A stretch of 63,522 bases of DNA, filler included, from Basidiobolus ranarum (lineage: Eukaryota), in NCBI GenBank assembly GCA_040143965.1. It is 41 parts of 41 records of this genome, joined end to end, with 100 filler letters (N's around TTAATTAATTAA, not from the genome) between each part and the next. Parts side by side here need not be neighbours in the genome. Positions count along the whole stretch, not along the records: positions 40,410 to 41,859 come from JASJQH010005148.1; 40 more parts are not named here. The stretch is one strand, 5' to 3'. Positions 34,207-43,408 of the stretch are shown piece after piece. Numbering within the stretch: the first letter of the stretch is position 1; every line of letters begins with the position of its first letter. The notes below the pieces were generated by a model, which was not told the origin of the DNA, searched no databases, and was given only the letters and a program-made list of their open reading frames with translations. The position numbers and the translations under genes are program-made.

Positions 34207-34740
34207 GCATGGAGGCTTCTCGTATGTTGGTGGCTTGACTGGAGGCTTGGGAGGTTTACATGACTTACTAGGAGGCTTCTCATATGTTGGTGGTTGTACG
34301 GGTGGTTTAGATGGCTTTGTGGGCTTGCAAGGCTTTCCTGGTTTGGTGGTAGTAGGAGGCTGGATCGGAGGCTTGTTATGCATAGTACTCACATCACCAT
34401 CTCTCTTTTGGTGGATTTTTCCTTGTTTCTTTCCATGACTACCGGTGGCGACGCATACCTTCACATCAGCCTTGATTCCCAGAATCTTGGCAGCAGCGCA
34501 GGCCTCCGCACATGTCATTGTGGAAGGAATCTTGACATGAGCAATCAGCTTGGTGAGATCAACATTAAGGCAAGCCTTAGCGTTGGCATGGATACCAAAG
34601 ACTGCAAGCCTTGCGATTACACCATCGCAGATGGAGTTTGAGTGTTTTACAGTAATGGGAGAGCCATTCAAGAAGGTTGGTTCTTTGGCCATTACGAGCG
34701 CAGCTGGTAACAATACTAGGGCACTTGCAAAGAACTTCAT
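34207..34740 (-). CDS. Secreted protein: one four-Cys domain, a KR site and Pro/Lys-rich PPTYEKPP repeats; 3' truncated
   Basis: Signal peptide; CDGVIARLAVFGIHANAKAC-x19-CAEACAAAKILGIKADVKVC; KPPVQPPTYEKPP repeats; TATA at ~34814-34820. Confidence 0.88.
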
Positions 34741-39932: not shown

Positions 39933-40309
39933 ATGATTCATGTTCTGTCCTCAACCAGTGTTGTTCCCCATGCTTACATTGTGGAGTTCCACAAAAATAT
40001 TGATAATGTTCAAGAGAAACTTCGTGCTGGTTTGAAAAAGGAAGGAATTGAATTCCATGAACGTACCACTTTTACCGATTCATTCTATGGATTCTCATTA
40101 GACGTAGGCGTTGATCATGCAGATTACTTGGCTTCATTCGAAGGTGTCAAGGCAATCTGGCCAATCGTAAGTGTGAATTTTGGGATAATACGGAATTCGA
40201 AATTTTACTAACTTCACATATATCGTAGACTCAACACGTAAAGAGTATTTCTGCTGACCAAGAAAAGATCGTCGGTTCTGGAAGCTTACCCCCTAATCTT
40301 ATTGCCTCT
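39933..40309 (+). CDS. Subtilisin-like S8 protease prodomain (I9-like), partial; intron 40167-40228
   Basis: VVPHAYIVEF, FYGFSL, LASFEGVKAIWP, spliced to ...LPPNLIAS; no clear signal peptide. Confidence 0.8.
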
Positions 40310-40433
40310 NNNNNNNNNNNNNNNNNNNNNNNNNNNNNNNNNNNNNNNNNNNNTTAATTAATTAANNNNNNNNNNNNNNNNNNNNNNNNNNNNNNNNNNN
40401 NNNNNNNNNCTCCATATACCTGTCACTAATAGA

Positions 40434-41859
40434 ATGATTCCCGCCAACAACCTGTTGTTACTTCTATCTAGTGCTCTTCTTGCCTCCAGTTTTGTTGTAG
40501 AGAGAGGATACGTTCCACCTACTGGAATCAGCTACTGTCAAGATCTGTTGTCGCACCTCAGAACTCGCTATGGCCTGAATATTGGTCCAGGTCTGTGCAG
40601 TAGCCGACCTGATAAGAGTGATGATGGGCTCGAGCTTCTAAATCCTGCTGATTTTACATGTGACGAACTTGCAGTCCGAGTCAGGGCTCTTGGTATCCAT
40701 GTTGATGCTAATGTCTGCCTCGGAAACATTGTCAATGAGTCTCACCGTAATGCTAAGAGGAGTGAGGATGATGATGAACGTCGGTGTAGAGACATCGTTG
40801 CCAGACTCAGGCTTCTAAAGGTCAAGGTAGATGCCAATGTATGTGTTGGTCTTCGAGGTGCTGGTGGTCTGTTGTCCAGAAATGAAATTAATCGAATGGG
40901 GTGTGAAGCACTTGTGGTCAAAGCTAGAATACTAAACATTATTGATGCTGATGTCAATATTTGTCTACAGAATGATAGAGAACCACGCAAACTTCAAGGA
41001 TCCAATGATGACAAATATAATGAGTGCCATGATATTGTCGCCCGCCTTCGTTTATTAGGGGTCGAAGTGGATGCAAATTTATGCCTTAGTACCAGAGGGA
41101 GCAAGGGTTGGTCAAAGAATCATGTCAACAGGTTGGAGTGCGATGACATTGTGGCTCATGCTAAAGTGCTTGGAATTCTCAAGGCTGATGCTGATGTGTG
41201 CCTACGCAATGGTCTGAATCCTGGTCACTCTCGACGTTCCAATGATGAAGATTACAATGAATGCGATGATATTGTTGCACGCCTTCGTTTGTTAGGCTTG
41301 AAAGTCAACGCCAACGTATGCCTTGGTATTAAGGGTAGAAATGGCTGGTCAAAAGAATATGTTGATGAATTAGAATGCGCTGACATTGTTGCCCATGCTG
41401 AAGTGCTTGGAATCATTAAAGCTGACGTCAATATCTGTCTGGGCAACATCTTGAACCTCGGCCACTCTCGAGGCCCTAATGACAATGAAGAGTACAACGA
41501 ATGCTCTGATATCGCTGCTCACCTTCGTTTGTTAGGCTTGAAGGTGGACGCAAATGTATGCCTTGGTATCAGAGGGAGCAAGGGTTGGTCAAAGGATCAC
41601 GTCGACAGGTTGAGGTGTGAGGATATTGTTGCCCACGCTAAGGTACTTGGGATTATCAAGGCTGATGTCAATGTGTGTCTTGGCAATATCCAGAACCTCG
41701 GTCACTCTCGAGGCTCTGATGGTGATGAATATAACGAATGCCCGGATATCGCTGCTCGACTTCGCATATTAGGTCTCAAACTAGATGCTGATGTTTGCAT
41801 TGGCGTCAAAAGTGCTGGTGGATGGACCAAAGATGATGTACGTAATAAAAGTTGCGAAG
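40434..41859 (+). CDS. Secreted tandem-repeat protein with at least 5.5 copies of a ~79-aa four-Cys unit; 3' truncated
   Basis: Signal peptide; alternating CxDIVARLRLLGLKVDANVC and CxDIVAHAKVLGIIKADVNIC modules; 475 uninterrupted codons. Confidence 0.93.
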
Positions 41860-41959
41860 NNNNNNNNNNNNNNNNNNNNNNNNNNNNNNNNNNNNNNNNN
41901 NNNTTAATTAATTAANNNNNNNNNNNNNNNNNNNNNNNNNNNNNNNNNNNNNNNNNNNN

Positions 41960-43408
41960 TGCCATTGCAGCACTCCAAAACTTCATGTTGGGACTCTCCA
42001 AAGCCTCCTGTACTGATTTTGGCTCATCAGAAAAGGCTAAATTAGCACTAGGCTCCTTTTGGCTAGTAGGAGAGTAGTAATCAGGCTGATATTTCAACCA
42101 ATTGGATCTCCTAAGATGGGAAAATGGCACTATGACTTCTGGTACCAATTTAGCCAATGAAACCACCTCAGGCTTGGTTGAGGAGACTGCAGGTGAGAGA
42201 CTTTGAATGGTTTTCTTACTGATCAAGATCTGGTGAGCAAAAGTAGAATTTTCATTGATTTTTGGTTGTTTTTCTTGATCCTGGATTGTTTTGAAAGAAA
42301 ATTTTTCTTCTTTCCCAAATTTCATGTCCCTTGACTTGATTAGCCTCTTATTTACCATGTCATATAGCCTGTATGTTTTTGTACCATTCAATATCCCAAA
42401 AAAAGACATATCTGGCTTTTTTGGTATAATTTTGATCTCTTCTTGCCTGGAATCATTGCATATGTGGTACTTCCAAGAACTCTTAGATTAGCCACATCAG
42501 GTTAACTTCCAAACCAAGCTTGATAAGGTGCTATAGCCAATATAGATCTGGAAGGATATCTATTTGTAATATATACTGCAGTTGCAACCAATTCAGCCCA
42601 GAACTGTTTTGGTAAATCTTGCTCATGAAGCATTGATCTTGCCTTTTCCATTATGGATCTGTTTGTACATTCTGCTACTCCATTCTACTGTGGAGAATAT
42701 AGTACTGTAGTCTGCTGCTTTATCCCATGTGTTGAGCAGAAGTTAGAGAAGAGTTTTGAGTTATATTCCCCTACAATATCAGTACGGATAATCTTAATCT
42801 TTAGACCTGTTTCAGTCTCCACCTTTGCTTTGAACTTCTTGAAGGTATCAAATACTTCATCCTTACTAGCCAGAAAGTACACCCAAGTATACTTTGTCTT
42901 ATCATCAATAAAGGTCATAAAATACCTTTTTCTGCCTAAGCATTTTGTCTGCATTAGGCCACATGGATCTGCATGTATCAGGCCCAATTTGTGATTAATT
43001 TTGCTCATTCCAGAGCCCACAAATGGCTGTTTGTGTTGCCTACCATATAGGCAATGTTCCCATAGCTCCAGATCTGGTGGAATTACAAAATGTAGTCCAA
43101 AAACCATCTTGTTTTTGATTAAAATTCTCATATTTTCAACTCCTGGATGACCCAATCTTCTATGCCAGATTTTCCAGTCCATCTCTTCAGCTGTGGCAAT
43201 ATTAACTTGTTCATATATTGGCCTAATATAATGAAGCTTATACAAGTCCTTTTGCTTAGGCCCAGAAGCTACTTAATTCCCTTTTTGATCCCTGATTGTG
43301 CAGCCATTTTGATCAAAATTAAAGCTATATCCCTCAGATGTATCTTTATTCACTGATGACAAATTTTTTGCTATCACAGGCACATATAGCATGTTTTTCA
43401 GTGTCAAA
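41960..43408 (-). mobile_element. Degenerate Copia integrase region
   Basis: WHRRLGH, HADPCGLM, YFMTFIDD, IRTD..GEY, EPKSVQEAL. Confidence 0.95.

Follow-up and report, generated by a model that had tools for sequence, protein, structure and literature searches.

We identified in Basidiobolus ranarum a real but cut-off gene for a tandem repeat protein, the conserved unit of which is a pair of cysteine-bracketed modules, hereafter A and B, together spanning about 60 residues with four cysteines. This twin-Cys domain has no match to a characterised family or fold, and a Pfam accession, PF28059, may already cover the repeat. The family is of a familiar kind, namely, the secreted fungal Cys-repeat proteins; fungi commonly have lineage-specific repeat proteins that are secreted and rich in Cys.

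The gene and its repeats

The window, that is, the whole stretch of 63,522 bases that was analysed, consists of small contigs, each of about 1450 bp, strung together in descending order of size. Their joints are artificial 100-base linkers with stops in all six frames (N44-TTAATTAATTAA-N44), and the window contains 82 N runs of 44 bases, paired around 41 copies of TTAATTAATTAA. From the positions of these N runs and linker sequences, the gene is located on a single contig of 1450 bp at 40410..41859, bounded by artificial linkers at 40310-40409 and 41860-41959. As the sequence outside 40410-41859 comes from unrelated contigs, neighbourhood arguments are void for this gene. The contig after it holds pieces of a copia-type retroelement.

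The coding frame runs on the forward strand from an ATG at 40434 to the contig end without a stop codon (40434..41858, 475 codons, 3' end open). Its 475-aa product, P0001, aligns collinearly, at 79% identity, with the first 478 residues of P0002, a paralogue of 653 aa; this end-to-end alignment supports the uninterrupted reading, and indicates that about 175 residues are missing past the contig end. The twelfth module is incomplete because the contig ends at 41859, so it was cut by the assembly and not by biology. The protein has already been deposited as the hypothetical protein K7432_018151 of Basidiobolus ranarum (P0004, 377 aa, on a 1450-bp contig), which is 100% identical over 79% of P0001 and leaves the repeat frame after residue 375, a departure that we think reflects a spurious 3' splice. 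A probable signal peptide covers residues 1 to ~22 (40434..40499, forward strand), where a hydrophobic N-terminus, LLLLLSSALLASS, was recognised by eye; by the same kind of inspection this N-terminus is also kept in the paralogues, and AlphaFold2 placed a helix at residues 4-18 in this stretch. The protein is probably secreted, in agreement with the original prediction of a fungal secreted-type repeat protein.

Of the 23 cysteines of P0001, 22 bracket 11 complete C-x18/19-C modules and the last one opens a twelfth, all in one open frame, just as had been predicted. The gaps between them are, in order, 19, 20, 18, 22, 18, 19, 19, 20, 18, 18, 19, 20, 18, 18, 19, 21, 18, 18, 19, 20, 18 and 18 residues. 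Modules of the x18 type (A) alternate with modules of the x19 type (B), forming a super-repeat of ~79 aa (237 nt) with four Cys, which is the higher-order repeat described earlier. The A and B consensus strings, as well as the GWSK and GHSR..YNE linkers, were likewise recovered as described: GWSK or GWTK follows four of the six A-type modules, and GHSR follows three of the five B-type modules. At the nucleotide level, Tandem Repeats Finder located a tandem array at 41001..41764 (forward strand) with a period of 237 nt, 3.2 copies, 75% matches and a score of 674.

All AB pairs of P0001 lie on the forward strand. Domain 1 (residues 35-95, 40536..40718) is a divergent N-terminal pair with C35-C55 (x19) and C76-C95 (x18). 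It is followed by Domain 2 (residues 118-177, 40785..40964; A C118-C137, B C157-C177), Domain 3 (residues 198-256, 41025..41201; A C198-C217, a GWSK linker, B C236-C256), Domain 4 (residues 277-335, 41262..41438; A C277-C296, B C315-C335) and Domain 5 (residues 357-415, 41502..41678; A C357-C376, B C395-C415). Domain 6 (residues 436-475, 41739..41858) is partial, with A C436-C455, GWTK, and the first Cys of B, C474. Among the three best units of P0001, the module codons have diverged at a dN of 0.10-0.14 and a saturated dS of 1.2-1.3, with a ratio of 0.08-0.12 (Nei-Gojobori method). Since dS is saturated while dN is low, the repeats must be old and held by selection on the protein, rather than being a chance pattern or a young satellite.

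The family and its conserved unit

A full HMMER pass with P0001 as a single-sequence query against 1.84 billion representative proteins returned 17 matches at E<=0.001, nine of them at <=1e-10 and four at <=1e-30. The 14 proteins of the family that have a name all belong to Basidiobolus (11, counting this gene, to B. ranarum and three to B. meristosporus); thus, the family appears to be restricted to the genus as far as named proteins go, ten of the 17 HMMER matches carrying no name. A bacterial and archaeal scan with a single-protein query gave 17 pattern matches and two loci, in Pasteurella bettyae and Octadecabacter sp., which we attribute to chance, both loci being seeded by the octapeptide NPADFTCD alone and lacking a second Cys or a module.

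Using tblastn with P0001 and ORF listing, we found a second, distant member of the family on another contig of the window (34207..34740, reverse strand). It has a signal-peptide-like start and one A+B pair followed by Pro-rich PPxKP, and runs off the contig end. Its product is 63% identical to P0015 over 129 residues, is in register in alignments A3 and A4, and falls in the subfamily of P0013, P0015 and P0019. In this product and in P0012-P0015, AB pairs are joined to low-complexity spacers that are Pro-rich (PPxKP, DPY) or Gly/Tyr-rich. Such spacers, which hint at a role in the wall or matrix, belong to these distant paralogues and not to P0001. Some copies of the family are tandem genes, as P0002 and P0006 sit on one 12,127-bp contig with consecutive locus tags. 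Many other members are found on contigs of 1.3-3.5 kb, which fits repeats breaking short-read assemblies.

The AB pair is conserved as a unit across these proteins. In the in-register alignment A4 (27 rows, comprising six segments of the window and 21 proteins, with P0002, P0003 and P0004 left out), all four cysteines are in register in 24 rows. The A modules have Leu at position 8 in 23 of 24 cases and the B modules Ala in 20 of 24, so that the split between A and B predates the diversification of the family. Proteins with a single AB pair and four Cys also exist (P0017 and P0020), and complete relatives stop straight after their last B module, without a hydrophobic tail. The module is fixed at x18/x19 in every relative, whereas anything from 8 to 75 residues may separate one module from the next. 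Between A and B the spacer varies little across the family, with 17-20 residues in most cases; between B and A it is free, measuring 8-13 residues in P0010 and 75 in P0014, and being Pro-rich in P0013. P0002 has an insertion of 7 aa exactly at the mid-module Gly position; together with the fixed module length, this is in keeping with a module that is self-contained and stapled internally, with a loop at Gly12.

Pfam-A searches with 20 family members (alignment A1) gave scattered weak matches with no consistent family among them (Urease_alpha in 3/20, DUF1889 in 2/20, and others). We treated the match to the urease alpha-subunit N-terminal domain (PF00449; 27 bits against a cut-off of 23 bits, in three of the 20 members) as a chance local likeness; the 27 bits are a sum over repeats, and the best stretch, residues 323-355 in one B module, reaches only from position 77 to position 109 of the 121-position profile. 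A phmmer search of PDB sequences with P0001 gave no match at E<=10, a profile search of the PDB gave one match at E=0.81 and nothing usable, and the ESM Atlas held no usable match for P0001 or P0005. These results in Pfam-A, the PDB and the ESM Atlas bear out the earlier view that the domain belongs to no named family; however, PF28059.1 is attached as a precomputed label to P0005, the orthologue from B. meristosporus, and so this view is possibly out of date. PF28059 was not returned when P0005 was scanned against a local copy of Pfam-A, and we found no mention of it in the literature. Nor did we find a description of the twin-Cys family in the literature on Basidiobolus secreted proteins, Kex2-processed repeat proteins (KEPs) and the capilliconidia adhesive. 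Gene models of the family have been deposited before, as hypothetical proteins.

Possible role and processing of the protein

Basidiobolus, a gut-associated fungus and occasional pathogen that stands phylogenetically isolated, has gut passage and adhesive spores in its life; it has been little studied, its surface proteins in particular. A genus-restricted, expanded and strongly conserved domain of secreted type is a reasonable candidate for a component of the wall, the spore coat or adhesion, and could serve as a genus-specific antigen or marker. Judged by architecture alone, P0001 may remain unprocessed and act outside the cell as a multivalent structural or binding protein, in which helix-plus-strand domains are arranged as beads on a string; we put this forward tentatively, as having somewhat less than an even chance of being correct. 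Each bead would be an A+B module pair of ~60 aa with four Cys. Within it, the first 11 positions of each module would form a short amphipathic helix that stops at an almost invariant Gly, from which an extended, alternately hydrophobic segment would run back to the module start, and a disulfide between the module's own two Cys would close the module. The beads would be strung on acidic, disordered linkers of ~20 aa, and the protein would be non-enzymatic and would act intact, in a protease-tolerant role in the cell wall, on the spore surface or in the matrix.

Multi-LysM effectors, multi-hevein/CBM18 lectins, CBM14 peritrophins and prosaposin are extracellular proteins built from small disulfide domains in tandem. 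By architectural analogy, P0001 resembles them in having copies of a small, presumably disulfide-stabilised domain on apparently flexible linkers after a probable signal peptide, and its relatives, like such proteins, also combine the domain with Pro-rich or Gly-rich spacers. In contrast to LysM, hevein, CBM14 and prosaposin domains, to which we found no sequence or fold match, the domain of P0001 has four Cys in a twin C-x18/19-C arrangement.

It is unlikely, in our estimation, that P0001 is instead a polyprotein whose B-to-A linkers are cut by kexin or another secretory protease. The products would then be single AB domains of ~7-9 kDa or two-domain pieces, and would serve as peptides with antimicrobial or signalling activity in the gut or in dung. 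The dibasic sites reported in the original prediction are real, namely, KR at residues 108-109 and RR at 116-117 (linker stretch 40755..40784, forward strand), and RR at 267-268, where a linker joins domain 3 to domain 4 (41232..41237, forward strand). They lie in acidic linkers for which the AlphaFold2 model, at moderate confidence, gives disorder: the five segments of more than 10 residues with pLDDT <50 (97-110, 178-193, 257-272, 336-350 and 416-431) are all B-to-A linkers. The single-pair proteins P0017 and P0020 also favour processing, as they imply that an AB pair can stand alone, and so does P0002, in which by our reading three of the seven B-to-A linkers are dibasic (one module being parsed out of register). 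On the other hand, KR, RR or KK occurs in only two of the five B-to-A linkers of P0001 (and in none of its five listed A-to-B linkers), in one of the six of P0005, and in none of the nine linkers in each of P0006, P0010 and P0025. Since these sites are confined to 2/5 linkers and are not conserved in the relatives, the release of ~8-kDa units by kexin, as proposed earlier, is not supported. Each of the five B-to-A linkers of P0001 keeps at least one Arg, or Lys-Arg, and monobasic or partial processing is therefore possible. The existing sites would yield unequal pieces rather than units, and with net charges of -3 to +4 the domains are close to neutral (mature pI ~6), unlike cationic peptides.

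By definition, a KEP has three or more repeats with KR, RR or KK sites between them (PMC6339444). A survey reported B. meristosporus to be the fungal strain richest in KEPs, with 43, and one type (S-3), rich in Y and D, to be found only in Basidiobolus, which speaks for processing; against it, the word "cysteine" is absent from the main text of the same article (PMC7329392). P0001 has more than three repeated motifs (11 modules, or 5.5 AB units; 3.2 copies at the nucleotide level), but the repeats are not consistently interspaced by KR, RR or KK in P0001, P0005, P0006, P0010 or P0025. KEPs also have an N-terminal signal peptide, for which the hydrophobic N-terminus of P0001 is a candidate. P0001 is similar to KEPs and to the Rep1-type repellents of Ustilago in being a fungal tandem repeat protein of secreted type with KR or RR in some linkers; it differs from KEPs in that its units are domains of 60-80 aa, presumably disulfide-bonded, and not short peptides. 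To our knowledge, Ustilago Rep1 is without Cys modules.

Predicted fold of the module

We modelled the whole of P0001 (20-row alignment) and a single AB domain (Domain 4, as window positions 41250-41459; 27 rows) with AlphaFold2, and obtained models of moderate confidence, with a pLDDT of 61.8 and a pTM of 0.27 for the former, and a pLDDT of 69.4 and a pTM of 0.46 for the latter. In the whole-protein model, a helix of 10-11 residues starts at the first Cys of each module and no strand is present; Domain 1 has a pLDDT of 75-86 over residues 31-60 and of 83-85 over residues 71-90. The AB-domain model has helices at 4-14, 21-24, 35-39, 43-52 and 61-67 and no strands, and the helices 4-14 and 43-52 again begin at the first Cys of each module. 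A prediction of self-association with two copies of one AB domain, run without an alignment, had a score of 0.00, a mark of 0.32 and an uncertain fold, and we base nothing on it in either direction. The Foldseek comparison proposed with the original prediction gave no fold match in the PDB (lowest E-values 2.3 with the whole-protein model and 2.6 with the AB-domain model, TM <=0.38), a weak test of the fold given models of moderate confidence.

The residue pattern of the module was derived from 83 unique x18 and 36 unique x19 modules, after dropping linker-like C-x18-C stretches and demanding hydrophobic residues at positions 4-5, a demand that biases both of these columns. The modules are hydrophobic at positions 4, 5, 8 and 11 and rich in Pro/Asp at positions 2-3, and Gly12 is present in 76 of the 83 x18 modules; a Pro/Asp start and a Gly end are helix-capping features. 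The second half of the module clearly alternates between hydrophobic and polar residues, with a moment of 3.11 at 180 degrees versus 0.89 at 100 degrees. By its periodicity the first half could be either helical or alternating, with a moment of 1.15-1.26 at 100-110 degrees versus 1.01 at 180 degrees in x18 modules, and of 0.99-1.15 at 100-110 degrees versus 1.20 at 180 degrees in x19 modules. Thus, the alternation that had been described on both sides of a central LG is strong after it, but equivocal before it. We favour a module that would consist of a helix, a break at Gly, and an extended segment leading back, as the models suggest; from the fixed spacing of the Cys, we further expect the two Cys of a module to pair with each other and so to close it.

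The twin C-x18/19-C pair, which appears confined to Basidiobolus and occurs there in at least a dozen genes, alongside spacers rich in Pro or in Gly/Tyr, might even represent a new extracellular fold of two disulfide-closed helix-strand hairpins, though we see only a modest chance of this. If it were so, the family would stand as a class of its own among fungal wall or adhesive proteins, with a possible link to the unusual life cycle of the genus.

The original prediction had instead envisaged disulfide-closed amphipathic beta-hairpins around the central LG, building a sheet-like surface layer or a membrane-active structure, and we now consider this quite improbable. It would account for the strong alternation in the second half (moment peak at 180 degrees), and for the mostly hydrophobic or small residues at positions 4, 6, 8 and 10 of the first half, which with a turn at L11-G12 would, by our register analysis, face positions 13, 15, 17 and 19. 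It would also suit the urease match, since the stretch of the urease alpha N-terminal domain that the B module weakly and locally resembles is, as we take it, a beta-hairpin. However, both AlphaFold2 runs (pLDDT 62 and 69) place a helix in the first half and contain no strand, and the Gly is off-centre, with 10 residues before it and seven after it. By our geometric reasoning, the register that matches the faces would, in addition, offset the two Cys by two residues. Pro at position 2 in 17 of the 83 modules and the Ala-rich first halves favour a helix, and the whole-protein model, with its pTM of 0.27, has no packing between domains.

Leucine-rich repeats (LRRs) have the pattern LxxLxLxxNxL, and those of the ribonuclease-inhibitor type alternate between A and B repeats. 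Although L-L-G-L-K-V-D-A-N-V-C in the module consensus can be read as this pattern and two repeat types alternate here as well, an LRR-like alpha/beta solenoid is highly improbable, since no LRR family was among the Pfam matches of the 20 members, neither model contains strands or a solenoid, the repeat is 38-41 aa long, against regular units of 20-30 aa in LRRs, with B-to-A spacers of 8 to 75 residues and low-complexity inserts, two-module proteins exist, and Asn occupies the "N" position in only 29 of the 83 modules.

Hydrophobins have eight Cys in the pattern C-CC-C-C-CC-C. P0001 is comparable to them in being a Cys-bearing fungal protein of secreted type with amphipathic character, but is long and repetitive, with regular gaps of x18-22, no adjacent Cys and no eight-Cys pattern, and no Pfam hydrophobin match was found in the 20 members; the earlier statement that the Cys spacing is not the hydrophobin pattern is therefore correct. 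The twin Cx9C (CHCH) proteins are helical hairpins of the mitochondrial intermembrane space. As a motif analogy, they share with P0001 a four-Cys unit of two consecutive Cys-bracketed segments with fixed spacing, and differ from it in that P0001 has x18/x19 spacing, a mid-segment Gly break, a secreted-type sequence and no Pfam match to them. This four-Cys likeness raises an alternative pairing of the cysteines, C1-C4/C2-C3.

Composition of the window and contigs beside the gene

The window is a chain of about 41 contigs, each about 1450 bp long and arranged in descending order of length, which are joined throughout by a linker of the form N44-TTAATTAATTAA-N44 carrying stops in all six frames (for example, at positions 40310-40409 and 41860-41959). 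Since the contigs are merely chained, findings based on gene neighbourhood are invalid here. The contig following that of the main gene holds pieces of a copia-type retrotransposon (41960-43408, minus strand), with Pfam matches to gag_pre-integrs and rve (integrase core) at 42685-43245 and a sub-threshold match to SH3_retrovirus at 41960-42409. The preceding contig contains a 92-aa ORF (39933-40211, plus strand), which we take, as a candidate only, to resemble a subtilisin propeptide (inhibitor I9); a Pfam search of this ORF returned no match at E<=0.001.

Deposited models and labels

The deposited protein of the main gene (P0004, 377 aa) departs from the repeat frame past residue 375, ending in ...DANVEV (window position 41559 onward). 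Because the Basidiobolus paralogue P0002 matches the continuous frame of the main gene, the departure is probably due to a spurious intron call within the repeat. The UniRef label of another paralogue, P0003 (K7432_018244), 'Xylose isomerase-like TIM barrel...', looks like an automatic mislabel, as neither the sequence nor a Pfam scan supports it.

A second family member and the linkers of units 3 and 5

A distant second member of the module family lies at 34207-34740 on the minus strand, where a signal-peptide-like start is followed by one AB pair, whose B helix holds extra Cys, and then by a Pro-rich region (PPxKP) that contains CKP motifs and is truncated by the contig end. This member shares 63% identity with P0015, an unnamed protein of the family. 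Within the array of the main gene, units 3 and 5 have A-to-B linkers (GSKGWSK..HV.RL; 41100-41150 versus 41577-41627) that differ at a single synonymous position (dS 0.10), whereas the two units are saturated outside these linkers, which suggests a local gene-conversion tract within the array.
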